This document shows positions 1 through 63,763 of a DNA stretch of 64,000 bases, piece after piece (within the stretch, counting starts at the first letter, position 1; every line of letters begins with the position of its first letter). Source of the DNA: an uncultured Nitrososphaeraceae archaeon (GTDB lineage Archaea; Thermoproteota; Nitrososphaeria; Nitrososphaerales; Nitrososphaeraceae); contig CAVZZA010000003.1 of the NCBI GenBank assembly GCA_963779615.1, positions 1,024,001 to 1,088,000 on the forward strand, in the 5' to 3' direction. A program made the translations under genes and the position numbers. Under the pieces are notes generated by a model that saw only the letters and a list, made by a program, of their open reading frames with translations, was not told the DNA's origin and did not search any database.

Positions 1-327
1 ATGCAAAACTCCAAGACATCAAAAGATGATGCGTGGCAAGTTATAGATAAAACGCCAATATCCTATTTAAAAGACATAAATGGATTGTATCTCCACAAAC
101 GAATATTGAGTTGTTTGGAGTGCCAAACTGCAGTTTGACTCAACCCAGGCATCACTGTTCTATCCGCGTTGAAAGCATTTAATGTCACTTATTCTCAGAC
201 ATCGGATAAAGACCAGGTTTTCTAGTCATTGCAGGCAAAGACTTTGAAACAGAAACGCTTGAAGGCAAAATCTATACTCAACGCAGGCGTTCTCAATTAC
301 GCTAATCTAATTTTGAGGAAGGGCCGC

Positions 328-692
328 ATGGAGCACAATCAGGTACATGTTAGAGCAGAATTTACAATAGAAGAAGGAAAAATAGAAGAATGCAAGAAGA
401 TGGTGCAAAAAATGAGCAGAGTTGTGGAAGATAGCGAGCCAGGTACAATAAACTACCGGTTTTATCTTAATAGATCAGAGAAAAGTGTGTCGTACACGAA
501 ACATACACAAATTCAGAGGCGGCACTGGCTCACATTAGAGGCGTTGCATCGCAAACAATACTCTCAAAGATTTTCAGTGTCACCAGAATGAGCAGGCTTG
601 ATGTATACGGGAACCCTAGCGAGGAATTACAAAAGGCGCTGACAAGTTTTGGTTCACATATTTATAACATATTTGCAGGGTTCAGTCGTTGA
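328..692 (+). CDS. Antibiotic biosynthesis monooxygenase (ABM)/quinol monooxygenase-like protein, one frameshift near 481
   Basis: MEHNQVHVRAEFTIEEGKIEE...EPGTINYRFY continues in another frame as CVVHETYTNSEAALAHI...VYGNPSEELQKAL...FAGFSR* (TGA 690-692). Confidence 0.75.
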
Positions 693-44126: not shown

Positions 44127-46277
44127 CTAACATGGTGTAACAATAGATCCTTTGTCACTCATCGAAAATCTGTAAATTTGCTCTATTTCAGAGTTTTCAA
44201 ATATCTCCTCATCATGGGTGATAATTATAATTTGAGACAAAGGTCCAACACCTTTGCTAAAAACATCTGAAATTATCTTGACAAAGGAACGTCGACGCTC
44301 TTCATCCAAATTAGAAGTGGGCTCATCCAGTACAATAAAATCGATTTTTGAGGATCCCATCAAATACGCAATTCCCATCCTTAATGCCAACGATACAGCC
44401 ACTTTTTCGCCGCCGCTTAATGAGATTATATCTATTTCTCCACGCTTACCGTAACACAGAACCTTTATCTCCCTAGGTTTTTCTATCAAAGATATTTTAG
44501 ATATACCAACATTAAAGGTATTGATATAATCAGAGGATTTGACAGATATTAAATTTAATGCCCAAGTCCTTAAGCTAGAACTTACTATGCCATCCCTGTT
44601 GAAAACATTTGATCTGATTTTCTCAAGATCAGAAATAAAACCAGAAGCTGAGTACAATTCAGACTTCAAGCTGTCAAATTCAACAATCTCAGTTTCCAGA
44701 TCTGAGATAGTTTTTTCCAATATTGCTTTTTGTTTTTGTGTTTCGATGAATTTGGATGACAGTCTATTTTTTATGTCTTTCTTTTGTTTAAGAACGTTCG
44801 GGTCAACGTCAACAAGATCACTCTTCATTTTTGTTATAACATCAATCAAGTTTCCTGAATACTCATCAACTTTATAAGACAACCAGTTAGCAGTGCCTTT
44901 AAAATCATTAAAATCCAGCCTGGAAATAATTTGAAAATCTTTATTTAAAGACGTGAGCCTTTCTTCAAGAGCATCTACGTTTTGATTTACAGAAATGTCA
45001 TAAGATGACAAGGTCTTTTCTGCAGATATTATATTTTTTTCTTTTTTTCTGAAATCGAGTTCCTCCATATTTAACTTCAGTATATCAGATGCGATCAATG
45101 CCTTTTCTTGTTGTTTTTTACCTAATTCCTGCCTGATGTGAGAAATATCAAACATATCATTTATTGTGGTTATTTTGGAGTTACACACAGGGCATTTACC
45201 ATCCTTTATTTGGATTTTTTTTGCAAACTCGGTAAATCCATTTAACCTCCCAATTTCACCTTCTAACTTATTTGTCTTTTTAGTTAGTTCTTCTTTCTCC
45301 GATAGGACCATTTGTAGAGTAATAAAAACCTCATCTTTATTCTCCAGAACTGAAAGAGAGTTTTTTACTTCGAAAATCGTCTTTTTGATTTTCTCGATTT
45401 CAATCTTTAGGGAAAATGATTTTTCTTTTAAATATTTTAATAGCGTAGTCTCCAATGCCCTTATTTCTTGAAGTTTGGATATTTTAGGTTCCAAATCGTC
45501 TATTTCTTTTTCCACCACCAACATCTCATCAGTTATTTTAGATAAATCCGAATACACCGTATTAAGGGATATTTTTGATTTTTCAATTCTGTTTCGATTT
45601 TCTTCAGCTTTAGTTATCAGCATATTTATATGATGATCATCGTAACCTCCAGTCTTTTCCCTCAGTGAATTTCTAAACTCATCAATAATTGAATGCATAT
45701 ACGCAAATGACGTGTCCAAACGGTCCAGGCCCATCATATTGTTTAACAATTCCTTAAACTCCTTTGGTTGAGAGTCAATTATTTTATTAATTTCGCCTTG
45801 TTGTATTATACTAGCGATTTGTAACTTTTGATAGTTTATTCCCAATATTGTTTCGATTTCACCGACAACTGATTCTCCAAGTTGTTTTCGTTCCCCCGAT
45901 ATTACCGATCGGTAATCAGGTTTACTTTTTTCATTCCTACCAATTAGAACATTTTGTTTAAGTTGATCTAACTTAACAGACACAAGGTGTCCCGAGTTAT
46001 TGATTTGCCGGTGAATTTTATAATTAACAGAACCAACAGAAAAGTCCATAACAACAAAGGAGCCCGACTCATCAGACGATATTTGATTAATACCCTTGGT
46101 AACTAAATTTTTATTGGATTTGCGGGTATGTTCATCGAACAGCGCAAATGTGATGGAATCTATGATGCTGGATTTTCCGGATCCATTATGGCCTACAAAC
46201 ACAGTTATGCCAGGGGTAAACTCAAGGCTGGTATTTTTATGAGATAAAAAATTATTTAAAATTAATTTCTTTATCAA
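44127..46277 (-). CDS. rad50: Rad50 (SbcC-like) ATPase
   Basis: GHNGSGKS, QQGE, zinc hook CPVC, LSGGE, LDEPT, ITH. Confidence 0.93.
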   Translation of the reverse strand: MIKKLILNNFLSHKNTSLEFTPGITVFVGHNGSGKSSIIDSITFALFDEHTRKSNKNLVTKGINQISSDESGSFVVMDFSVGSVNYKIHRQINNSGHLVSVKLDQLKQNVLIGRNEKSKPDYRSVISGERKQLGESVVGEIETILGINYQKLQIASIIQQGEINKIIDSQPKEFKELLNNMMGLDRLDTSFAYMHSIIDEFRNSLREKTGGYDDHHINMLITKAEENRNRIEKSKISLNTVYSDLSKITDEMLVVEKEIDDLEPKISKLQEIRALETTLLKYLKEKSFSLKIEIEKIKKTIFEVKNSLSVLENKDEVFITLQMVLSEKEELTKKTNKLEGEIGRLNGFTEFAKKIQIKDGKCPVCNSKITTINDMFDISHIRQELGKKQQEKALIASDILKLNMEELDFRKKEKNIISAEKTLSSYDISVNQNVDALEERLTSLNKDFQIISRLDFNDFKGTANWLSYKVDEYSGNLIDVITKMKSDLVDVDPNVLKQKKDIKNRLSSKFIETQKQKAILEKTISDLETEIVEFDSLKSELYSASGFISDLEKIRSNVFNRDGIVSSSLRTWALNLISVKSSDYINTFNVGISKISLIEKPREIKVLCYGKRGEIDIISLSGGEKVAVSLALRMGIAYLMGSSKIDFIVLDEPTSNLDEERRRSFVKIISDVFSKGVGPLSQIIIITHDEEIFENSEIEQIYRFSMSDKGSIVTPC

Positions 46278-47502
46278 TCCAAAGAATCATCATCCTTTTC
46301 TTGATAATTTTTTTTGTTATTTTCATAATATTTCCAAAGGTAATCAACAATTTTCTTGTTCTTGCCTTTGTCGATGTTCATGTTATTGGTGAGTTGTTCC
46401 TCATCATTTATCATCTGCACAAGATCTAAAGACAAGTTTGTCAGGTTTTCAGACTTTAGCGTATTTAAAACCAATTTTGAAAGCTCCTTATCGATTTTAA
46501 AATCGTTTGCATAGTCATAAGAATTGCCAGATACTGACTCCTCATCAAACGTGTTCCAGGCATAATACAAAAAGTAGTCGTTTAGTTTAGATAGTTCACC
46601 AGATAACATTTTAGGATCAATTTTTGCCCCTTTCACTTTTAGATCGAGTATAGGTTTTTTTTGGCAGTTCATGGATAAATCTAAAAGATATTTTAGATGC
46701 CTATCCAATTCACCATAATCTAGTGAGTGGCTTATTTGAAGTCTTCTTTTTTCGATCTTGATCCATTGTGTGGTAACATTTTCAGGGCTGTTTGAAACAT
46801 CAACCATAAGAAACCCTTTTTCCACATCTGAAATAGGCTCATTATGGCCAAGGTCAAGCGATCCGGGATAGGCAACCAAATGGTTTTCAATTTCAGGAAA
46901 GTTTTTTTGTATATGATCATGATAATGGCCCATTGCGTAATAATCAAACCCCAAGGGCAAATCGCTTGCAAAAATCTCACCTGCAAATTTATTAAAGTCA
47001 GATAATCCCTGATGGAGAACCAAAATTTTCTTTATCTTTTCCCTCTTATTTTGTCATTTTTTACCATTTTTTCTAATTTTTTAAATGGTTTAATTAATCC
47101 ATTATCAATGTTGGATCGTCTTTCCTTATTAAATCCATATATCAACAGGTCTTTTATTTGAGCAGGCGAATCTGGCTTAAGTCTTTTAGCTAATCCCAAA
47201 TTATGAAACAAAAATAGAAGGGGCACATCATTGGTTCTGCTTATATCATGCTCCCCAAGTATAAAATAAACAGGAATAGATTTTTCCTTTAGTTTTTTTA
47301 ATTCACGCGCTAATCTTATAACAGAGGCGCCATTGGGTTTGGGATTATGGAAAATGTCCCCAGCAAGAATTATTGCTTCAACGTGTTCATGAATAGATTT
47401 ATCTACTGATTCTTCAAATGCCGCGTAAAGATCTTCTTCACGCTCTTGTAGATTAAACTGGGCGTAACCTAAATGAATATCCGAAATATGGGAGATAAGC
47501 AA
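46274..47502 (-). CDS. mre11: Mre11 (SbcD-like) nuclease, frameshift near 47030
   Basis: SDIHLG, AGDIFH, GEHD, VLHQG, MGHYH, YPGS; overlaps rad50 start. Confidence 0.92.
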
Positions 47503-50688: not shown

Positions 50689-51463
50689 ATGAGAGAAGTT
50701 GGGAAAGGAAACTTTCCAAAAGACATTGACGTCAAAATTGCAGAGACGGGTAATGGGATATACAGAATATCAGGGTTTGACGACACATTTGGCATCACAT
50801 TTAACCAATTTTTAATTGATGATGACCAACCAATGCTCATCCATACAGGCCCTATCGGGATGTACAAGAAAATAGAAGAAAAAGTAAAGGAAATAATTCC
50901 ATTGAGCAAATTAAGCTATGTCGCATTCCTACACTTTGAAAGTGATGAATGGGGAGGGATGGCATTTCTTGATTCTGCGGATGCCAAATTGGTATGCAGT
51001 GATTTGAGCTCGAAATTAAATTTGACGGGATGGTACAACATCCCTGTTGACCACATTTCGTTTTGGGACAATGAAACTCTAAAAACAGGCAAGAGGAGGT
51101 TCAAATTCATCATGACCCCCCATGTTCACCATTGGGACAGCATGATGGTTTTTGAGGAGTCGACACAGTCACTTTTCCCATCAGACCTGTTTATTCAGCC
51201 AGGCAACAACAGAACAGTTACAGAAGAGGACCTATCAGACAGCATGCTTGCCCTCTATAGAGGCGCAGGAATATTTGCAAGCGAAGGCCCAGTACAGGCA
51301 AACAACCAAAAGGCTTGAAAGGTTGAATCCAAAAATGGTATTTCCCATGCACGGCTCTTGCATTGATGGCTCCATCTTTCCAAAATATGTGGATGCGATA
51401 ATGGACAATAAATTTGCGTATTCGGGGATGGTGCTTGGGCAGGAATTGGAAACAGTCAGCTGA
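50689..51463 (+). CDS. MBL-fold di-iron protein (FprA N-domain/ODP-like), frameshift near 51298
   Basis: FNQFLI, HFESDE, PHVHHWD, SDLF, PMHG. Confidence 0.82.
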
Positions 51464-51866
51464 TTACGGTTTAAACAGGAAAAACAGCAAAGGAGAGCGA
51501 GATAAACAGACCATAAAATATTTTGGAGTTGCAGCAAAGGTGAAAAAAGAGAGTGAAAATAAGGGGTCTAGAGGAAAAAATGCAAATCAACAACATGATT
51601 CGAGCAAACCAACGCCATTTGATGCATCAGATCAGTCAAAATTCTTGGTTTATCTCCAAGCATTTCTTTATAAAATCTCCTTCATTGTTCCCCCCACATT
51701 ACGCGTAGGAGAAACAAATATGCCTTGGACAAAAACAAGAGTGAAAAGGAATAATACAAAAAAAACATGCAGAAAATAAATTATTTTCTATGCCGAGAAA
51801 AAAATTACACCCATAAAACAGATGATGGAACAAAACATTTTATTAAAACCTTTTGAACATCATAAT

Positions 51867-52534
51867 GGCTCTGTTAACTTAAGAGATTATTTCGCTATTG
51901 TGGTGATAAGCAAACAGATTCAACCATTGTTTTACGTGCTTTAGTTTGCATTTCTTCCTTCTACACGGAAAATAATCGTCAAATCCTTCTGTCCTGTCCT
52001 TGATGTACTGCACAGTCCTCTCTATCAGGCTTTTCTCAAAAGGGGAATGCAGATGATGCTTTAGTTTCAGGAACCTGCATGCTTGTGGATACCAAGTTCC
52101 CCCATCTGTTGAAACCGGATGCTTTCCATACCTATTTGTCAGAGACGCAATAAACCGTTCGGCTACAAGTATTGCTCTTTCAACTGACACATCAATCCAA
52201 AGGATTTTCCTGTGTTTTGGTTCAATTGCAACCCAAGGCCATGTGTGTTGGGAGCCAACCTTAATCTGGGTTTCATCAACAACATACCCATGAACCTTTT
52301 TTTCTCTTGGTTGATAGTCTCTTTGGCCTGTATTTTTGAATCCATTTCCAGACTGACCCCGGGCTTCTTTCCACAAATCGGTTTAACGCCTTTGCAGTGC
52401 TTCTATAAGAGAGACCAAGGAAGTAAAGATATAGTGAATAGGCAATATCCTTTGATTTAGTTCTCTGCATTAGGCACATCAATATCGCTTATGGCATAAC
52501 CGCAACTATAGCTTTTTCTTAAGCTAACAGAGCC
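51867..52534 (-). mobile_element. IS6-family insertion sequence, 668 bp
   Basis: 18-bp TIRs GGCTCTGTTA(A/G)CTTAAGA; DDE transposase inside. Confidence 0.92.
51879..52482 (-). CDS. IS6-family transposase, frameshift in an A7 run near 52300
   Basis: LYFLGLSYR, VWKWIQK, VDETQIK, STDGGTWY, IER...KDRT. Confidence 0.9.
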
Positions 52535-52971
52535 ACATAATAATTCATAATAATATGAAGGCTAATTCAAGTTTTTATTTATTATTTAAAGTCTAGTCAT
52601 AAAGGTATGAGTTTAGTGAGAATAAAATGTAATTCATATTTTTCGTGCCAATAAATAGAATATACTATTTAAAAGTGAAAGTATGAATATCTTTATTACG
52701 ATCGCATTATTCTACAACCACCGCATCTAAAAAAATTATCTGGAATCAGGATCAATACAAGATATTATATGTATACATGGTATCAAATCATTCAACCAAA
52801 TATATTCAGGATAATTGTATAGAAGCCTGAAAGGATAAATTCGCGGTGTTGTTGTATAGTCCCATTTAAATCATATTCACACCTGTATCATTGTAAACAC
52901 CACTTACCCTTTTTTAAATGAAACCCCCTCAATGTGTGTTATTCGGGTTCTTCCCTAATCCTGGAATAATG

Positions 52972-53005
52972 TACTTATAAGCAATACTTATAAGCAATAC
53001 TTATA
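52972..53005 (+). repeat. 13-bp tandem repeat containing a TATA-like motif, about 2.6 copies
   Basis: TACTTATAAGCAA TACTTATAAGCAA TACTTATA, ending 35 nt before ATG 53040. Confidence 0.85.
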
Positions 53006-53039
53006 TCACATATCGACAACAGTTTACTATTAAAGTTAT

Positions 53040-54170
53040 ATGAGCATCATACAGAAAAATGTAGAATATTCAACCAGATCTAACCCCATTAATATGAATT
53101 ATGGTCAAATAAAGTGGTCATGGGCAAGTAGATTGTTACGCAGCGATCATGAATATGAAATTACTAAAGCAAAAGAATATAGTGACACGCCTGTTGTAGG
53201 GGATCTGGGATTATTCAGGGTTATTCGTGTTGGCTCTCACACCAGACTGATAAATATGGATAGTAGGAAAATGAGAATTTATGAAGGAGATTTGTTCGTG
53301 GGTATTTTTGGCAATAGATATGCAACAGATGCTTTTGAAGCAGAAGTAGAAGGGTTGAAAGATCTTTCATTGTTGACTACTGCAGGCATGGTAGGAAGGA
53401 TAAAATCCAGTCATAACTCAACTGGTAGATCTACAGAGGTTTCATTTTTGGGTTTTCTGAAGGACAAGACATCAAACCAAAAAAAAATAAATCTCAAGCA
53501 AACAATATTTAAAAAAAGGTATCTTGATCATTCTTTATCAAGACCTAAAGGACTAGGAAATCTATTGGCTATAGTAGGATCAGGAATGAGTTCCGGAAAA
53601 ACAACCTTTTGTAGAAAATTAGTAAAATCGCTTTCTCAAAAGGGATTATCGGTAGCCGCCTGTAAATTGACAGGGAGCATTTCCCCAAGGGATTTTGATG
53701 AAATGGTTTCGGCAAGTGCCATTTATGTAACAGATTTTAGCGACTATGGTTTTCCTTCCACATATAAATGCGAAGAGAAGGAATTACTTAAATTATTTGA
53801 AATCATGTTATATGATATAGAAAAGTTAAATCCAGATATCATAATAATGGAAATAGCAGATGGTGTTTTACAACAAGAAACCAATTTCTTGTTAAATGAA
53901 CCCTTATTTCAAAAAAGGGTAGGCGGATTAGCGGTTGCAGCAGATAATGCGCCTTCTGCTCTATACACAGTAAACCATCTTGCGAGTTTAGGGTACAAAA
54001 TACTTGCATTATCCGGAGCCATAACATCATCTCCTCTATACGTAAGAGAATTTGAAAAAATGTCTGCTATACCCGTGATATCCTCTGCGGCTAACACCAT
54101 AAGAGTTGGTTCGTTATTTAACAATTTAATAAAGAAAAAAGAAAATATTCACCATAGTTTGGTAGAATGA
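53040..54170 (+). CDS. DUF1611-like P-loop protein
   Basis: GDLFVGIFGNRYATDAFEA, GSGMSSGKTT, CKLTG, DFSDYGFPSTY, EIADGVLQQET. Confidence 0.75.
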   Translation: MSIIQKNVEYSTRSNPINMNYGQIKWSWASRLLRSDHEYEITKAKEYSDTPVVGDLGLFRVIRVGSHTRLINMDSRKMRIYEGDLFVGIFGNRYATDAFEAEVEGLKDLSLLTTAGMVGRIKSSHNSTGRSTEVSFLGFLKDKTSNQKKINLKQTIFKKRYLDHSLSRPKGLGNLLAIVGSGMSSGKTTFCRKLVKSLSQKGLSVAACKLTGSISPRDFDEMVSASAIYVTDFSDYGFPSTYKCEEKELLKLFEIMLYDIEKLNPDIIIMEIADGVLQQETNFLLNEPLFQKRVGGLAVAADNAPSALYTVNHLASLGYKILALSGAITSSPLYVREFEKMSAIPVISSAANTIRVGSLFNNLIKKKENIHHSLVE

Positions 54171-57100
54171 GCGGCAGTAAAAAAAACGGAAGGAAAAACA
54201 AATCAATTATAAAATACGGGCTGACTTTCCTAAAGCGATACAGAACCAAACTTTCTTTTGCAATATTTTGGTCCATCCTTTTTGTTATAATTCCAATGCA
54301 AATACCAGTAATTACGGGCACGTTAGTTGATGGATTGGGTGCAAGCGGTGAAAATCCAATTTCATTCTACAGTATTGAAATTGGCAAGACTCCTTATGAT
54401 GCTTTAAAGTTCGGCATTGTCAGCCTGTTGAGTGTTTCTTTGCTATATGGCATTACAGCTTATATGAGAATTTCCCGTGCATCAATTGTTAGCAGGAAGT
54501 TTGTTTTTGAGCTTCAAAGGGCAATAGTTCAAAAATTAGAATTCCTATCCTTGGATGTCCATAGAAAATATGGTTCTGGCGACCTTTTAAACCACATAAT
54601 AGTGGATACCAACAATGTAAGGCCCTTTGTGGAAACAACAGTTATAAAAACAATAACCAACATTGCCAGAATATCATATCCTCTTGTTATACTTGTTCTT
54701 ATTGATCCCTTTCTGGCAATGGTTGCATATTCAATATTGCCTGTTCAATATTTATCCATAAGAAAGATTCAGTCAAAAATAAGCCATGTGTTGGCACAGC
54801 AGAGAAATGATAAATCAAGGTTAACCACACTGTTAAAAGAAAATCTTGACAATATCGAAACCATCCAATCGTCCAGTGCTGAAAAAAACTTGATAGGAAA
54901 AATAACAAGCGATATTGGACAGATTGAGTCATCGCAAATAAAGGCTCAACGCCAATATGGAATTATGATGGGTTGTGCATACGGTTTAACAGCATTGGGT
55001 ATGGCATTGATTTGGTGGTTCGGAGGACAAAAAGTTTTGCATAATGAAATCACTCTCGGTCAACTTGTAATATTCTCAGGGTTTCTTCTCTTCGCTTATG
55101 AGCCAGTCCGATACTTTACCAGGAACGTAAAAGATCACCACAGGAGCATTATCGCATTGAAACACATACGAGCGGTTTTAGAGATACCCTCTTCTATTAA
55201 TGAGGAATATGACGCTCCAGGTTTAAGAGCATCAAACTGCAACATAGTTTTTCAGCATGTCTCTTTTTCCATTGGTAAAAAAAATAAAAGCATACTAAAG
55301 GATGTTTGTTTAGACATAAGCCCCAAAAGCATTACGGTGCTTGTTGGGAAAAGCGGATCTGGGAAAAGCTCTATTTTGAAATTGATTATGCGATTATATG
55401 ATCCCTCTGAAGGGAAGGTATTGATTGACGGGCAAGACATTAAGCATGTTTTGGTATCTTCCCTAAGATCACAAATTGCCCTGGTGCCTCAGAGTCCTGT
55501 AGTGTTTTCTGGAACAATCAAAGAGAATATTCGCTTGGCAAACCCTGATGCCTCAGACAAGGAAATTGAAGAGGCATGCATTGCTTCGGATGCTTTATTG
55601 TTTATTAATAAATTTGAAAAGGGATTAAGTACAATCGTTGGTCAAGGGGGTGTACATTTGTCGGGTGGGGAAGTTCAAAAAATAGCTATTGCAAGAGCAT
55701 TGCTGAAGAAACCAAAAATATTATTATTGGACGAGCCCACATCTGCAATAGATACTGAATCTGCAAAGCACATCATGAATACATTGAACAGCTTAAGAAA
55801 GTCCATGACAATCGTCGTTGTAGATCATAGCATAAATTCAGTTGTTCAAGCAGACAATGTGATTACCATAAATGACGGGGTTGTGGTCGATACCAAAAGT
55901 AGAACGATGGTAAAAGAACTTTACAATGGATCGTATCTTGCTTACTCTCAGGACAATTTTAGCTATACGCTTTTAAATCATAATCAAACTAATATATTCC
56001 CCAACGGAATAAGTGGTATGGCATCAGATGTGGATGTTCCGCAGGGTGGAAGCATTGAAGGAAATAGCATAGATTACAGGGTCATTGGTAGAACCACCAA
56101 TAAACGGCGGATAGATGTTGTCTTTGTCGGTGATCAAAATAATCCGAAATTAAAGGTTTTCGTCTTTGCAGGGCAACATGGTGATGAAAAAGGTAGCAGG
56201 CAGTCGGCCCTGAGGCTAATCGATCATCTGATAAAAACCAAAGAGTTCCCCGATATCTGTGTCGGTGTTTTGTCTAATGCAAATCCTGATGGAGCCTTCA
56301 AAAACAAACGTCAAAACACTGCAGGAATTGATTTGAACAGAGACCACTTGTTATTAATGTCGGAAGAAAACCGCGCAATACATTCCTTTATTCAATCTTG
56401 GAAGCCAAATGTAATAATAGATGTCCACAACTATCCGCCTGTAAAGGAATACTTGAAGAAGAATAACTATGCATTTTACCAGGACGTGCTCATAGACGGG
56501 CCCACCAATCCCAGCATTATCAAAAAATTTGATAAAGATCAATTTGGTAGTTTATTGAATCATTTGCAATTGGATCTAGGCAAGTTTAACTATAGTTGTG
56601 ACAGGTATGTGTTAATCGATCCAGAGGGCAGGGCAAGGCATAGTACAGACGATATTGTTGATGCAAGGAATTTTTTGTCGTTAAGGCATAACGCTTTAAC
56701 CATCTTGGTTGAAGGAAAAGAACCCCTGCCTGGAAAAGATAAGGATCAGCAGTTAGAGCGCAGTATTTCTGCGCAATATCTTGCTCTCGTATCTATCCTA
56801 AAGTGGATCACCCAAAACAAATCCATCATACTTGAGAATCCCCAAACTGCAAATGAAAAAGCAGACAGGATTTCAATTAGATACAAGTTCAGCGAACCTG
56901 AAAAAAACTTTAAAATGAAATTTCTAAATACAGTTTCTAATGAAATTGAAGAATTTGCCATTCCTGCTTATGAATCATCTTTGGAAGACAGGAGAACTGT
57001 TAAAATGCCTTATGCGTATGCAATTCCAGGCAGCAAAGACAAATTGTTGGCCATTTTGCATGGTCACGGTTTTACCTCCACTAGGCTGGATAAATCAGAA

Positions 57101-57403
57101 TTATTCAAAGTACAGAAATATCTCGTGCTAGCATGCGAGCCTTCAAAAGCCAGCACAAAAAGAAAACCAAGGCCGCCTACAAACGTCCGATTGATAACCC
57201 TTGAGGAAGAAAAAGATTTATCGGGTTATGTTATTTTTAACACCAGTCAGGAGGGAGGATATTCACTGCCGCTCTTATTAGAACCTCAATCAGAATATGG
57301 GCTCACACGGTATGAAGAGTTGGGTTTAGACGTTACCCCAACGAAAGATTTTGATGCTTTAAGAATAACAGACAAAAAGTTCAGAGACATCCATAATAAT
57401 TGA
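54167..57403 (+). CDS. ABC exporter (TMD+NBD) fused to a C-terminal M14 zinc carboxypeptidase
   Basis: TMD with several TM helices; GKSGSGKS, LSGGE, LLLDEP, H-loop; then QHGDE, NPDG, RQN..GIDLNRD, IDVH, LVEG. Confidence 0.85.
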   Translation: MSGSKKNGRKNKSIIKYGLTFLKRYRTKLSFAIFWSILFVIIPMQIPVITGTLVDGLGASGENPISFYSIEIGKTPYDALKFGIVSLLSVSLLYGITAYMRISRASIVSRKFVFELQRAIVQKLEFLSLDVHRKYGSGDLLNHIIVDTNNVRPFVETTVIKTITNIARISYPLVILVLIDPFLAMVAYSILPVQYLSIRKIQSKISHVLAQQRNDKSRLTTLLKENLDNIETIQSSSAEKNLIGKITSDIGQIESSQIKAQRQYGIMMGCAYGLTALGMALIWWFGGQKVLHNEITLGQLVIFSGFLLFAYEPVRYFTRNVKDHHRSIIALKHIRAVLEIPSSINEEYDAPGLRASNCNIVFQHVSFSIGKKNKSILKDVCLDISPKSITVLVGKSGSGKSSILKLIMRLYDPSEGKVLIDGQDIKHVLVSSLRSQIALVPQSPVVFSGTIKENIRLANPDASDKEIEEACIASDALLFINKFEKGLSTIVGQGGVHLSGGEVQKIAIARALLKKPKILLLDEPTSAIDTESAKHIMNTLNSLRKSMTIVVVDHSINSVVQADNVITINDGVVVDTKSRTMVKELYNGSYLAYSQDNFSYTLLNHNQTNIFPNGISGMASDVDVPQGGSIEGNSIDYRVIGRTTNKRRIDVVFVGDQNNPKLKVFVFAGQHGDEKGSRQSALRLIDHLIKTKEFPDICVGVLSNANPDGAFKNKRQNTAGIDLNRDHLLLMSEENRAIHSFIQSWKPNVIIDVHNYPPVKEYLKKNNYAFYQDVLIDGPTNPSIIKKFDKDQFGSLLNHLQLDLGKFNYSCDRYVLIDPEGRARHSTDDIVDARNFLSLRHNALTILVEGKEPLPGKDKDQQLERSISAQYLALVSILKWITQNKSIILENPQTANEKADRISIRYKFSEPEKNFKMKFLNTVSNEIEEFAIPAYESSLEDRRTVKMPYAYAIPGSKDKLLAILHGHGFTSTRLDKSELFKVQKYLVLACEPSKASTKRKPRPPTNVRLITLEEEKDLSGYVIFNTSQEGGYSLPLLLEPQSEYGLTRYEELGLDVTPTKDFDALRITDKKFRDIHNN

Positions 57404-57709: not shown

Positions 57710-58300
57710 ATGATGTTGACGACCAAATCCAAATTGGTTAGTTCCTACAAAAAGGAAACAGACTCAGAGGTTAAGGAAAGACTGCCATTAGTTATCAGGT
57801 AAGAGAAGACGGACGCATTCCTTTTCTTGTTGTTATGGTGATGAAAAGAAGCTACCCTTGGGCGGGGCTGGCTAAAAAGATATGATAAGGAAGGCATTGA
57901 GGGACTGAAGGATAGGACAAGAAGCGGCAGAACACCTGAGATATCACAAGAGACTTCCAGTCAAATAAAAAAAGAACTAGCTGGCTCCAAACAGGGCGGG
58001 ACAACAAAACAGGTGGAAGAGCTGTTTGTGGAGAAAAGCGGCACAAAATACCATTATACCCACACATACCGCATACTTCGCAAATGGGGTTTCAAGCAGA
58101 AGGTGCCAGGAAAAGCGCATGTCACCACGGCATCCAAAGATGAGAAAGAGGCTCTCAAAAAAAGGCCACAGAGCATCGCCGCACCACAGGCCAAGGAAGG
58201 TTAGGAAGTATTTTGGCAGGCATAAAGGCAGCCTGATATCAGTATACCTTCCAACCGCATCACCAGGGTTTATGGTGATGTAGGGCGGTATGGAACATGG
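57710..58300 (+). pseudogene. Degraded IS630-family transposase
   Basis: WLKRYDKEGIEGLKDRTRSGR, YRILRKWGFKQKVP and YLPTASP segments in broken frames. Confidence 0.8.
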
Positions 58301-59035: not shown

Positions 59036-61006
59036 TCACCTTGGCAGCAATGCCCTGTGCATGTCCCACAGTATCAGTGTGTATTCGGACAGAAATGGCG
59101 GTCCCCCGCCAAAGTTTCGGGGCTCGCCACCGCGTGCAAACTGACAAGATTCGTCTCTTACCTGAACTGGCGCAGAATCCAGCTTTACCGGCTTGCTTGC
59201 CTCCTTGAAGACAACAGTGCTCTTGCTGTCATAGTTGCAGTCACCAGTCCTTGTCAGCGGGAGGTTGATTTCATCTGCAACGGATTGCTTTTTGAGCACC
59301 AGCCTCTTGTCGCCTGTGTTGAGCCCAAACCAATCCTCAACTCCGGCACCAGTGGATGGGTTTATGAAATCTACACGCATCCACTGCCAGCCACTTGTTG
59401 GGGTGCCATCCCTGCGCTGAAGGTCCGGCAGGGTTATCAGTTTGCCTGCGTCTGCCAACTCGGGTATCGGGACATCCCTTAGCCTGAGCGTGGTCTGTTC
59501 ACTGGTGTACACCATTGATATTTGTGTCAGGATGTTTTTGACCTCTAGGAGTGGGTACCTTGCCGGTGGTGGCTGCTCTCTGAACAGATCGTAATGATCT
59601 TTGTCCTGCACCATGACTGGCAGGTCAAACTCCCCATCCAGCCCCGCAATTCTGATTTTTCCTGGTTGCTCTTTTCTCTTGGATGAGTCATCTCCCACCC
59701 CATTAGGCCCGTATCCAAATGCAGACAGGAATTGAGGCGCCACGTCTGTGGTCGTTGCCCCAGTGTCAAAATTGTATTCCACTGGTTGGCTCCACGTTCC
59801 ATCTGGCAGCTTCAATTGAATAGGCAATATAGTCCTGGTTTCTGAACTTGTGAGGTTATAAACAAGAGTACTCTTTGGTTGTGACAGTATCCGAACCTCA
59901 GTTATTGAGGCCCATAGATTTTCAGTATTTCCGTTAACAGTTATCCTCACATATTTGGCATGTAATGTAGAGTTTGGAATAAGATAACGCTCCAGATAGT
60001 TAGTCTTTCCGCCGCTTTTGGACGAAAACACATTCACAAAGTTAGAGCCATCGTTAGAAGCAGAGACAGTAAACGCACTTGTCCTAAGATCGCCCCTTTG
60101 CCAGGCAATGTCAATGGCGCATACCACTGTACTGGGTTCAAGTTCATACTGAATATAAGATCCAATACCATAGTCACCCCATCTGGTGTCAAAGTTTTTG
60201 TCAAGGGTATTTTGCGGAACCTTAGTGCCATCATAACCACTTGAGCGAACTCCAAGTATCTTTGACTCGCCACACCCGGCAGTGGGAACAGTTGAGGACG
60301 GCTTTGACAGTATTTGAACCTCAGTTATTGAGGCCCAGTTATTTTCCGTGTTCCCATTGACAGTTATCCTTATGTATTTGGCCTGAAGATCGGGGTACTC
60401 AACAACATAACGCTCATAAGAGTTTGTCTTTCCGCCGCTTTTGGACGAAAACACATTCACAAAGTTAGAGCCATCGTTAGAAGCAGAGACAGTAAACGCA
60501 CTTGTCCTAAGATCGCCCCTTTGCCAGGCAATGTCAATGGCGCATACCACTGTACTGGGTTCAAGTTCATACTGAATATAAGATCCAATACCATAGTCAC
60601 CCCATCTGGTGTCAAAGTTTTTGTCAAGGGTATTTTGCGGAACCTTAGTGCCATCATAACCACTTGAGCGAACTCCAAGTATCTTTGACTCGCCACACCC
60701 GGCAGTAGGATCCGAGGCTAAAGATGCAGAAGGAGATATTTGGGAAGATGATGATGGGGTTTTGTACTGCAAAGGATCAGCATCAGAAGGTAAAGGTGCA
60801 GAGCGGGTGGATTTGGGGGAGGATGATGGGGTTTTGTACTGCAAAGGATCAGAGTACCTAAAAATAGGGACATCAAGATACTTGTCAAATAATTCAGAAA
60901 CAGATGATGCGGCATAAATCTTGGTAACAAGATCAGGCATGCCAGGCATAGCAAAGATTAACATTAAAACAACAGATGCGGATAACAAGCGGTTATATTT
61001 TATCAT
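59036..61006 (-). CDS. Secreted protein: two F5/8 (discoidin/CBM32) domains plus a bilobed aspartic-protease-like region
   Basis: Signal peptide; NTLDKNFDTRW and KY(I/V)RITVNGNTEN.WASITEV twice; FDTGAT and LNTGD motifs. Confidence 0.8.
   Translation of the reverse strand: MIKYNRLLSASVVLMLIFAMPGMPDLVTKIYAASSVSELFDKYLDVPIFRYSDPLQYKTPSSSPKSTRSAPLPSDADPLQYKTPSSSSQISPSASLASDPTAGCGESKILGVRSSGYDGTKVPQNTLDKNFDTRWGDYGIGSYIQYELEPSTVVCAIDIAWQRGDLRTSAFTVSASNDGSNFVNVFSSKSGGKTNSYERYVVEYPDLQAKYIRITVNGNTENNWASITEVQILSKPSSTVPTAGCGESKILGVRSSGYDGTKVPQNTLDKNFDTRWGDYGIGSYIQYELEPSTVVCAIDIAWQRGDLRTSAFTVSASNDGSNFVNVFSSKSGGKTNYLERYLIPNSTLHAKYVRITVNGNTENLWASITEVRILSQPKSTLVYNLTSSETRTILPIQLKLPDGTWSQPVEYNFDTGATTTDVAPQFLSAFGYGPNGVGDDSSKRKEQPGKIRIAGLDGEFDLPVMVQDKDHYDLFREQPPPARYPLLEVKNILTQISMVYTSEQTTLRLRDVPIPELADAGKLITLPDLQRRDGTPTSGWQWMRVDFINPSTGAGVEDWFGLNTGDKRLVLKKQSVADEINLPLTRTGDCNYDSKSTVVFKEASKPVKLDSAPVQVRDESCQFARGGEPRNFGGGPPFLSEYTLILWDMHRALLPR
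60003..60706. repeat. 281-bp direct repeat (60003-60283 and 60426-60706), apparently identical
   Basis: Same sequence at 423-bp offset; the shadow ORFs 60034-60273 and 60457-60696 are identical. Confidence 0.92.
60750..60852. repeat. 31-bp direct repeat at 72-bp spacing (DPLQYKTPSS)
   Basis: GATGATGGGGTTTTGTACTGCAAAGGATCAG twice. Confidence 0.85.
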
Positions 61007-62512: not shown

Positions 62513-63763
62513 ATGAAAGGGGTAGTAAAAAAAATTCCGGATAAGTTAAGTAATGATTTAGATCTCAACTATGATAAAAACATTGGAAATGAATTCAAAA
62601 TCCTTTTTGTTGGTGATACAACTTTTGGAGAAAACTATGTTAATGATTATGGATCCCGAAAGGATATCGGATATAATCCCTTAGAAAGGTTTGACCGCGA
62701 CTATTTTTTCCAAAAGGTAAAGCCCATTTTACTTGAATCCGATTTGGTTATTGCAAACCTTGAAACACCACTGATAGATGTGAATAATACCGTGAGACCC
62801 ACTTTTCCAGTTTCCTCCACTAACCGTTACGGCAAAAAGAATGGTGTATATCAGCACTGGACAGATAAAACGAAAACTGTCAAATATTTGAAAAAATACA
62901 ATATCCTCAATGTGTCATTGGCAAATAACCATGTGCTGGACTACGGAATTGACGGTTTACACCAAACTCTGGATAAGCTGGAAGAAAGCGGAATAAGATT
63001 CTTTGGTGCAGGTGTTAACAGAAGGCAAGCTGGCACACCATATACAAAAAACATCTTTATCGGGCACACAACGGTGAAACTTGCGGTTATCTCCGCCTTT
63101 GAATACCGCAAGGGATATGACGAGGACTTCTCTTTTTACGCAAGTGACATGAAAGGAGGAGTAAACAGGCTTTCACTTAATAGAATCCACCAAAAAATAA
63201 AAAAACTAAGAGAAGACAACAACAATGTCTTCGTTGTTGCATTTCCCCATTGGGGGGGACGCCGTAACTATGGCTGGAAGACAGACAAGCAGACAAGACT
63301 AGGGCACCAACTTGTAGACGCGGGGGCAGATCTTGTGATTGGTGGTGGTCCCCACAATATGCAACAAATCGAAGAATACAAAGGACGGCTGATTTTATAC
63401 AGCATTGGAAATTTTCTGTATAATTCTTGGGGCAATTATGGTAACTTCAACGCCATTCCTTTCAGTTTGGCAGTAAGGTTGGTATTTCAAACAAACGATA
63501 TAAAAAACCCGACCAATCAACCTGAACAAGATAATGCTGACAATGACATCCCCTTAGCAAAAGTAAAAAAAATACTCAAGGTATACCCCATTAAGACAGA
63601 CAATAGTGAGACGAATTTCCAAGGAAGATTCTTGGAAGAACAGGAGTTTAAGATTGTCCATGATATACTGACAGACAAAAACTCTTTTCTAAAATCCTCA
63701 AAAAGACCTACGAAAGCAGGGATTGACAAAATAGGCCGATTTGTAGAAGTGCACTTGGATTAG
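62513..63763 (+). CDS. CapA/PGA_cap-family metallophosphoesterase
   Basis: VGD, NLETP, LANNHVLDYG, PHWG, GGGPH, YSIGNF; GGAGG RBS. Confidence 0.88.
   Translation: MKGVVKKIPDKLSNDLDLNYDKNIGNEFKILFVGDTTFGENYVNDYGSRKDIGYNPLERFDRDYFFQKVKPILLESDLVIANLETPLIDVNNTVRPTFPVSSTNRYGKKNGVYQHWTDKTKTVKYLKKYNILNVSLANNHVLDYGIDGLHQTLDKLEESGIRFFGAGVNRRQAGTPYTKNIFIGHTTVKLAVISAFEYRKGYDEDFSFYASDMKGGVNRLSLNRIHQKIKKLREDNNNVFVVAFPHWGGRRNYGWKTDKQTRLGHQLVDAGADLVIGGGPHNMQQIEEYKGRLILYSIGNFLYNSWGNYGNFNAIPFSLAVRLVFQTNDIKNPTNQPEQDNADNDIPLAKVKKILKVYPIKTDNSETNFQGRFLEEQEFKIVHDILTDKNSFLKSSKRPTKAGIDKIGRFVEVHLD

Follow-up and report, generated by a model that had tools for sequence, protein, structure and literature searches.

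Which process joins a soluble P-loop enzyme to an ATP-binding cassette (ABC) exporter that carries a zinc carboxypeptidase at its end? The question is raised by two overlapping genes, here called gene 1 and gene 2, at 53040-57403 of a 64-kb window (the whole stretch of DNA that was analysed), part of a 3.17-Mb archaeal genome that is 92.5% complete. In an earlier reading of the letters alone, the original prediction, the pair was proposed to be a horizontally acquired unit that modifies, trims and exports an amino-acid or peptide product. Here the three functions concerned (ATP-dependent enzyme, M14 peptidase and exporter) were found as a conserved unit from archaea to soil bacteria, and the evidence for this is very strong. 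The reading preferred for that unit, given about an even chance, is that an ATP-dependent C-N ligase, a carboxypeptidase for acidic residues and an exporter handle a small amide-linked metabolite. The host is probably a soil ammonia oxidiser of Candidatus Nitrosocosmicus, because the gene 1 protein of a genus relative (G575) is identical to one assigned by NCBI to that genus. The two genes are as follows.

53040..54170, plus strand: gene 1, an open reading frame (ORF) of 376 aa encoding a soluble, two-domain P-loop enzyme.
54167..57403, plus strand: gene 2, an ORF of 1078 aa encoding an ABC exporter half-transporter fused to an M14 carboxypeptidase.

The genes meet at the junction GTAGAATGAGC, where the start codon of gene 2 (ATG) and the stop codon of gene 1 (TGA) share the letters ATGA. 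No frameshifts or internal stops were seen in either gene, and both lengths fall within the range of relatives (362-380 aa for gene 1; 1060-1114 aa for most fused relatives of gene 2).

Linkage was assessed in 82 related gene 1 loci (80 metagenome contigs and 2 genome contigs). A single-protein scan of the genome collection gave 2 close loci, and an alignment-based scan of metagenomes supplied the rest. An ABC or M14 gene started within 1.5 kb on the same strand in 60 of the 63 loci with at least 300 nt downstream. An M14 gene was found in 31 of the 32 loci with at least 3.5 kb downstream, and in 21 of 21 with at least 6 kb. The three exceptions were L014 (ABC and M14 on the other strand), L066 (an overlapping ABC ORF) and L036 (neither). 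The rows span archaea, Acidobacteriota, Binatia and others, but several are near-duplicates, so the counts overstate independence. Gene 1 was followed by an ABC gene in 10/10 other genomes of the order that carry it, and M14 was seen in 9 of these; the contig of the tenth ends inside the ABC gene. The conserved linkage of gene 1 homologues, on which the original prediction had staked its case, was thus observed. Four architectures were distinguished.

Architecture 1: gene 1, then a fused ABC-M14 gene (the window, L002, L005 and L006).
Architecture 2: gene 1, ABC and M14 as three genes (the commonest form).
Architecture 3: as the three-gene form, plus a membrane-anchored protein of ~190 aa and an HTTM+DCC1 protein before M14.
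Architecture 4: flavin reductase, gene 1, M14, then an OEP/HlyD/AcrB pump replacing ABC, opposite a polyketide synthase.

Of the 32 loci with 3.5 kb or more downstream, 11 have M14 immediately behind gene 1, without an intervening ABC gene. An OEP gene followed M14 in 8 loci, with HlyD and AcrB genes (an RND pump) where the contigs extend. The ABC-M14 fusion is restricted to one archaeal clade, and replacement of ABC by an RND pump to one bacterial clade. The constant core is gene 1 plus M14, and some pump follows this core in nearly every locus. Architecture 3 was found in one lineage behind adenylation, carrier-protein and phosphopantetheinyl-transferase genes.

Further genes were recorded around the core. 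Seven bacterial loci (L024, L031, L039, L042, L044, L046 and L049) encode, between pump and M14, a fusion of HTTM with a DCC1-like thiol-disulfide oxidoreductase (~458 aa); save in L044 and L049, these loci also encode the ~190-aa membrane-anchored protein, which has a DSFPLSYYPMFSAKR motif and belongs to no family. In the L068-L084 group (e.g. L073, 1456-20000) the core pair lies between the flavin reductase gene and the OEP/HlyD/AcrB efflux pump, and large genes for polyketide synthase, thioesterase, DUF6200 and DUF6312 form a block oriented divergently to the pair. Archaeal three-gene forms in L015, L017, L018, L020 and L021 stand among DsbD, thioredoxin/DsbA, cupredoxin, cation-efflux, DUF302 and ArsR-type genes. 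Such flanks may indicate a thiol or metal context, or merely the commonness of these genes in these archaea.

What kind of enzyme does gene 1 encode? No family was found for it in Pfam or NCBIfam, where the only match was a sub-threshold one of MobB to the P-loop. A word-indexed search returned 618 related proteins, and an exhaustive search returned 1097 clusters (50% identity) at E ≤ 1e-3, 620 at E ≤ 1e-10 and 177 at E ≤ 1e-30. Window gene 1 is 45-81% identical to 31 sampled members (archaea, Acidobacteriota, Binatia and others). The two motifs first named for it, the GNRYA of the N-terminal domain and the P-loop GSGMSSGKTT, were recovered at residues 90-97 (as FGNRYATD) and 180-189, in columns that are invariant or nearly so among the 31 relatives. 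The motifs CKLTGSxSxRDxDE, DFSDYGFPSTY, MEIADG and TSSPL are also invariant there, as is C208; C30, H67, H125 and C244 are at least 90% conserved. Weak domain matches among the 31 relatives were to MobB (31/31), CbiA (26), AAA_26 (22) and DUF1611_C (19, best E 1.5e-6, below the Pfam membership threshold). Searches of a protein atlas with the whole of gene 1 returned only unnamed or weakly labelled clusters, and a search with its N-terminal domain returned a single match at 0.85, under the useful range.

The structural features of gene 1 are the following; domain limits are those of the AlphaFold (AF2) model, which has a predicted local distance difference test (pLDDT) score of 81, and of its fold matches.

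53109..53465, plus strand: N-terminal beta-rich domain (residues 24-142), strands only in the AF2 model.
53307-53330, plus strand: invariant FGNRYATD loop in the N-terminal domain.
53553..54137, plus strand: P-loop domain (residues ~172-366), from fold matches.
53577-53606, plus strand: Walker A GSGMSSGKTT in the P-loop domain.
53658-53678, plus strand: ACKLTGS lysine motif (residues 207-213) in the P-loop domain.
53847-53864, plus strand: MEIADG in the P-loop domain.

The best structural matches of the P-loop domain were dethiobiotin synthetases (Z 16.4, 16.1 and 16.0), the first superposing with a root-mean-square deviation (rmsd) of 2.8 Å over 184 residues. Matches were also obtained to DUF1611 structures (2g0t, Z 15.4; 2obn, Z 14.1; DgcN 7xrj, Z 13.5), to CTP synthase (Z 14.5) and to formyltetrahydrofolate synthetase (Z 12.2). 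A family profile aligned the Walker A and CK lysine motif of gene 1 to GTGTGVGKT...VCK of M. tuberculosis BioD (E 0.001); MEIADG was aligned with BioD VEGAGG only within a second, below-zero-scoring stretch. Gene 1 was not placed in the BioD equivalog, no BioD model being among its NCBIfam or Pfam matches. On the predicted fold, the closest working model for gene 1 would be the BioD group of ATP-dependent C-N bond formers. Enzymes of this group act via phosphorylated intermediates. The likeness lies in the aligned Walker A (GTGxxxGKT) and CK motifs and in the best fold match, and extends to the BioD-related CbiA/CobQ group through the weak CbiA and AAA_26 matches across the gene 1 family. What sets gene 1 apart from BioD is an added N-terminal domain, beta-rich and ~150 residues long, that bears an invariant motif of its own; an identity of just 14-17%; and its partners, which are a peptidase and a pump, not biotin genes.

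Gene 1 had been called DUF1611-like. DgcN acetylates D-glutamate. As a statement about fold the label holds (Z 15.4-13.5): the DUF1611/DgcN proteins share with gene 1 a two-domain layout and similar size, and their C-terminal P-loop domain superposes. As a statement about family it does not hold, in that window gene 1 had no DUF1611 match at E ≤ 0.01 in the Pfam search, the matches of 19 relatives are weak, and dethiobiotin synthetases score higher, by about 1-3 Z units. Alignments to the DUF1611 structures begin at model residues 98-115, leaving most of the N-terminal domain unmatched, and whole-protein structural comparison gave no family or fold match for that domain. Its conservation and the many invariant polar residues of gene 1 look like a substrate site.

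Distant gene 1 paralogues (31% identity) were seen in three small archaeal genomes. In two of the three they adjoin genes for RimK-type ATP-grasp ligases (L115, 7657-9617, minus strand; L122, 261-2353, plus strand), near purine-synthesis genes; the third (L121) is without this pairing. No M14 gene was seen beside the paralogues in the three genomes. The adjacency to RimK-type genes is anecdotal but consistent with amino-acid ligation chemistry.

The same fold comparisons raise a different role for gene 1, that of a nucleotide-dependent metallochaperone or regulator that loads zinc into the M14 domain or gates it, the functional pair being the peptidase and the pump. The fold neighbours HypB, UreG, ApbC/Cfd1 and MeaB-like domains (Z 12-15) would suit such a role, as would the invariant C208 with the highly conserved C30, H67, H125 and C244, and gene 1 always lies beside a zinc enzyme. 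The top fold matches are nevertheless dethiobiotin synthetases, with the BioD-type lysine motif aligned; the large conserved N-terminal domain and invariant polar residues resemble a substrate site; and two of three distant paralogues adjoin ligase genes with no M14 gene seen there. A metallochaperone is regarded as quite improbable. A complex prediction for gene 1 with the M14 part scored 0.00 against a mark of 0.32, which counts neither way.

Gene 2 was divided as follows.

54257..55090, plus strand: transmembrane domain (residues 31-308; ABC_membrane, E 1.8e-30), which holds all hydrophobic segments by hydropathy.
55295..55744, plus strand: ATP-binding cassette (residues 377-526; ABC_tran, E 1.1e-32).
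56039..56833, plus strand: M14 catalytic domain (residues 625-889), cytoplasmic.
56867..57400, plus strand: C-terminal mixed beta/alpha domain (residues 901-1078), confidently modelled.

By its ABC_membrane and ABC_tran domains the protein is a complete ABC exporter half-transporter, and its ABC motifs are intact: Walker A GKSGSGKS, signature LSGGE, Walker B LLLDEPTS and H-loop VVVDHS (residues 550-555). Hydropathy gave no hydrophobic segment after residue 330, so that everything after the ATPase is cytoplasmic. A disordered linker of ~40 residues (591-631; pLDDT < 50) precedes the M14 domain. The sequence of enzyme, peptidase and exporter first proposed fits this anatomy, in which an M14-bearing exporter has its peptidase behind a cytoplasmic ATPase with no further membrane segment.

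The M14 domain is intact. Pfam Peptidase_M14 was matched at residues 638-728 (38.8 bits against a cut-off of 21.6), and seven residues (H671, E674, H754, N724, R725, R834 and E849) are invariant in 24/24 fused and stand-alone homologues. H671 and E674 (HxxE) with the distal H754 are the zinc ligands; the NR pair N724/R725 lies within DLNRDH (722-727), R834 in a DARN motif and E849 in LVEGK, the catalytic role of E849 being assigned from its position in the fold. In the AF2 model of the M14 part (pLDDT 87.6), R834 opens a helix (model residues 243-251), 15 residues ahead of E849, which lies in a strand (254-261). In carboxypeptidase A the S1' specificity residue 255 and Glu270 show this topology and spacing, and an arginine at the S1' position is a feature of the acidic-specific CCP group. 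The placing of R834 at the S1'-equivalent position in this model suggests acidic (Glu/Asp type) specificity.

Structural matches of the domain (Z 24.9-19.7) were carboxypeptidases, a bacterial CCP-like enzyme and MpaA, the top one covering 236 residues (Z 24.9, rmsd 3.1 Å); Foldseek likewise matched the M14 fold (E 1.8e-12). At the sequence level the best PDB matches were the P. aeruginosa entry 4a37 (E 2e-10; structural Z 24.0) and MpaA 5hxd (E 4e-10; structural Z 19.7), in alignments that span only the first half of the domain. The zinc ligands, the NR pair and the cytoplasmic location are shared with these two enzymes. Differences are that the M14 domain is fused behind, or encoded next to, an ABC ATPase, and that it carries its own conserved C-terminal domain of ~180 residues. 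The CCP-specific N-terminal beta-sandwich was not found, only the ABC ATPase and the low-confidence linker preceding the M14 domain, and the alignment to 4a37 is confined to the catalytic portion of that enzyme (chain residues 123-375). Residues 901-1078 are conserved in fused and stand-alone M14 partners, with columns to the end of the alignment; in a search with the larger M14 model no structural match covered them. The M14 part has no NCBIfam family. Fused ABC-M14 proteins were found in 19 clusters (681-1114 aa, 43-100% identical over the M14 part).

Peptidase-containing ABC transporters (PCATs) are bacteriocin exporters with an N-terminal cytoplasmic C39 protease domain. Gene 2 likewise encodes an ABC exporter with a covalently attached cytoplasmic peptidase, and by analogy the covalent link suggests that processing is coupled to export. 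Here the peptidase is a zinc-dependent M14 enzyme at the C-terminal side, behind the ATPase; Pfam gave no Peptidase_C39 match, and the protein begins 30 residues ahead of the membrane domain. The likeness to PCATs would favour maturation and export of a ribosomal peptide, in which the tethered carboxypeptidase trims the C-terminus of a precursor modified by gene 1 and by a CapA-family enzyme encoded nearby. Scores of 215-236 bits for the ABC part on NCBIfam bacteriocin-exporter models go the same way, as does a match of the CapA-family protein to the lasso-peptide C-terminal epimerase MslH (E 3e-14, far under the cut-off). Yet MsbA-type and cyanophycin-associated models score higher (281-292 bits), and no precursor peptide gene was found at the module: when the 900 nt ahead of gene 1, the sole region screened, were compared in six frames across all loci, no small ORF was common to distinct clades and similarity was confined to close loci. 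Ribosomal peptide maturation is considered unlikely.

Does the CapA-family gene belong to the system? Its position is given below.

62513..63763, plus strand: CapA/PGA_cap-family gene, 416 aa, soluble product (PGA_cap, E 2e-54).

It is the sole copy in the window's genome. The gene lies directly after the fusion in L005 and adjoins it in L006 and G619; in the window a gap of ~5.1 kb, holding an IS630 remnant and a G+C-rich F5/8-type-C gene, parts it from gene 2, and this content indicates that an insertion probably separated the two. CapA-family genes turned up in 5 of the 11 gene 1 carriers and in none of 7 checked genomes without gene 1, a small sample of related genomes. Within the fused clade the synteny of the CapA-family gene is real, and there the gene is likely a third partner; most module lineages are without it altogether. 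A gene of the beta-aspartyl-peptidase family lies near gene 1 in L005, L006, L027 and G619, and 14.6 kb past gene 2 in the window's genome. These two neighbours point to chemistry on acidic amino-acid units.

The F5/8 gene in the gap (59036-61006, minus strand) encodes a secreted-looking protein of 656 aa with two near-identical F5/8 type C (discoidin) repeats. Its stretch has 44-50% G+C against ~35% around it and is probably foreign inserted DNA.

The CapA-family gene had first been taken as a hint of a polyglutamate-like surface polymer, and of that hint the partnership stood and the polymer did not. Construction and export of such a polymer by the unit with the CapA-family gene would explain why this gene is syntenic with the fusion in three loci and confined to gene 1 carriers (5/11 against 0/7), and the acidic specificity proposed for the M14 domain would fit. 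As in the PgsB/PgsC/PgsA (CapBCA) system, a CapA/PGA_cap-family gene travels with the fused module. The resemblance ends there: a search of the 92.5%-complete genome found neither PgsB (TIGR04012) nor CapC (PF14102), while both controls were positive in Bacillus subtilis; the CapA-family protein has no membrane segment or anchor by hydropathy; and its nearest named model, and only NCBIfam match, is the weak one to the peptide epimerase. A half-transporter with a carboxypeptidase would, moreover, suit small cargo, and most module lineages lack the gene. With neither PgsB nor CapC found, and with a soluble CapA-family protein, a polyglutamate polymer is considered very unlikely. We read the CapA-family protein as a tailoring enzyme of the fused clade, not as a sign of a capsule.

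How the module is distributed bears on what it may be for. Among 401 sampled genomes of the phylum, two gave a gene 1 match at E ≤ 1e-20, the second being a distant paralogue. At E ≤ 1e-30 the carriers were 11 of 401 genomes in the order (the window's own included), 9 of 111 other genomes of the family and 3 of 22 other genomes of the genus. In a quick tree of 48 rows, unrooted save for midpoint, window gene 1 fell in a clade of 10 rows that holds all fused forms (Shimodaira-Hasegawa-like approximate likelihood ratio test support 97). This clade is nested in a mostly archaeal group (support 86-94), within which the genus relative G589 lies elsewhere. In G619 the module has decayed (L105, G619:C28, 4857-11404): gene 1 is intact, ABC is in two ORFs, all that remains of M14 is a fragment of 186 aa, the CapA-family gene is also split, and the beta-aspartyl-peptidase-family gene is divergent from gene 1. 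The window unit is bounded by an insertion sequence (IS) element and an IS remnant, which are listed here with the upstream repeat.

51866..52535, no strand assigned: IS6/IS240-type insertion element, the upstream boundary, with 19-nt terminal inverted repeats and a DDE transposase ORF.
51879-52376, minus strand: DDE transposase ORF of the IS6-type element, short at 165 aa (DDE_Tnp_IS240, E 8e-7).
52972..53005, plus strand: perfect 13-nt tandem repeat, 2.6 copies, TACTTATAAGCAA, containing the TATA-like TTATAA.
57845..58204, plus strand: IS630-family transposase remnant, the downstream boundary (NF033545, E 1.3e-15).

The inverted repeats of the IS6-type element (51866-51884 and 52517-52535, 19 nt) are 95% complementary, and the IS630 remnant covers only the N-terminal third of its model (positions 29-133 of 299). 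These repeats, the NF033545 match and the ORFs bear out the initial description of two intact genes, overlapping by ATGA, between IS6 and IS630 remnants. The module is, judged from these sequences, an accessory, mobile-looking trait among these archaea. The patchy spread and the IS flanks agree with the horizontal acquisition first proposed; it is no recent bacterial import, however, because window gene 1 sits inside an archaeal clade of the family. G+C content of the unit (35-39%) is near that of its surroundings, and the stretch at 58.5-60.5 kb has 44-50%.

Patchy, accessory spread (11/401 genomes of the order, 3/22 of the genus) and IS elements on both flanks are also what a detoxification or self-resistance system would show, in which the enzymes modify and cleave a toxic peptide-like compound, incoming or self-made (e.g. 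a Trojan-horse antibiotic), and the pump expels it. An interchangeable pump, ABC or RND, would agree with this, and some bacterial forms adjoin polyketide synthase, adenylation/carrier-protein and phosphopantetheinyl-transferase genes, which suits self-resistance in biosynthetic clusters. The 45-81% identity of gene 1 from archaea to bacteria, however, argues for one fixed substrate and not for varied antibiotics; the minimal form stands without a biosynthetic cluster in most loci, and neither protein matches a known resistance family in NCBIfam. Detoxification is thought rather unlikely.

An own, repeat-bearing promoter had been claimed for the pair. The perfect 13-nt repeat with TTATAA was recovered, ending 35 nt before the gene 1 ATG, and marks a candidate archaeal promoter region of gene 1. 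The repeat is not conserved in the four relatives examined and is specific to the window's genome. Pieces of both genes (95-99% identity) were present in contigs from 4 soil RNA-library runs of 4 studies, a weak hint that a close relative transcribes them; the hint is weak because the pieces may stem from DNA carry-over. No RNA-library contig lay over 52500-53167 or several stretches of gene 2, and such contigs cannot prove absence.

Other genes of the neighbourhood were noted. Next to a Rad50-like SMC ATPase (716 aa), and following it, an Mre11-type phosphoesterase is encoded in two ORFs of different frames (44127-47502, minus strand); these ORFs, at 47032-47502 (Metallophos N-terminus) and 46274-47023, reflect either a frameshift or a gene that is truly in two parts. 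Immediately ahead of the IS6-type element, a gene for an ODP-family metallo-beta-lactamase-fold protein (50689-51463, plus strand) is apparently broken into overlapping ORFs at 50689-51318 and 51152-51463. In the closest genus relative (L003) an IS240-type DDE transposase gene (67-681, minus strand) lies ~6.6 kb upstream of gene 1.

How, then, might the unit work? On the preferred reading, that of a ligase, a carboxypeptidase and an exporter acting on a small amide-linked metabolite, gene 1 would work like dethiobiotin synthetase or CTP synthase: with ATP it would activate a small substrate at a carboxylate or comparable oxygen, a C-N (amide-type) bond would then be formed, and the beta-rich N-terminal domain with its FGNRYATD loop would supply substrate binding. 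The M14 domain, tethered at the cytoplasmic end of the pump and by its residues a catalytically complete zinc carboxypeptidase or amidase, would release, or act beside, a Glu/Asp-type residue with a free carboxylate. The ABC half-transporter, an exporter by family, would carry out the product as its presumed cargo. All enzymatic steps would be cytoplasmic, and the product would leave the cell afterwards.

Several points weigh against this reading. No member has been assigned a substrate, product or activity. The nearest folds of gene 1 include non-ligase NTPases (SRP GTPases, HypB and ApbC, Z 14-15), and the DUF1611 fold does not dictate ligase chemistry, because DgcN (PDB 7xrj) is titled an N-acetyltransferase. 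The S1' placing of R834 rests on spacing and predicted secondary structure, without residue-level superposition. A ligase with a hydrolase alone would be futile; the scheme requires a further step or another substrate, for which the minimal archaeal form offered no candidate. The module is also dispensable: most genus relatives lack it, and in G619 it has plainly decayed.

A more specific proposal would give ligase and hydrolase separate moments. Gene 1 would represent an undescribed family of BioD-fold ligases that, in the cytoplasm, attach an acidic amino-acid cap to a small metabolite, and the tethered carboxypeptidase would remove the cap at export; were it removed only at that moment, the active compound would never accumulate in the cell. 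If this is true, the pump would parallel the bacteriocin exporters that cleave off leaders, with a zinc-dependent enzyme at its C-terminal side, in a system common to ammonia-oxidising archaea and soil bacteria. The proposal is put forward tentatively, with a small chance of being right.

As the original prediction supposed, no characterised pathway was found to match the pair: neither gene 1 nor the M14 part has an NCBIfam family, and no description of the gene 1-ABC-M14 module was found in the literature listings and abstract openings covered. In these same listings and openings the fused ABC-M14 form is an ABC exporter architecture nowhere described. A protein of this form suggests that a pump can have hydrolysis physically joined to export at its C-terminal end. 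The gene 1 family is large (1097 clusters) and without a Pfam or NCBIfam model or a known activity, and its coupling to a carboxypeptidase and a pump is an experimental handle. Among its hosts are soil ammonia oxidisers, about whose secreted metabolites little is known, and an exported peptide-like compound could bear on metal acquisition, redox balance or competition in soil.

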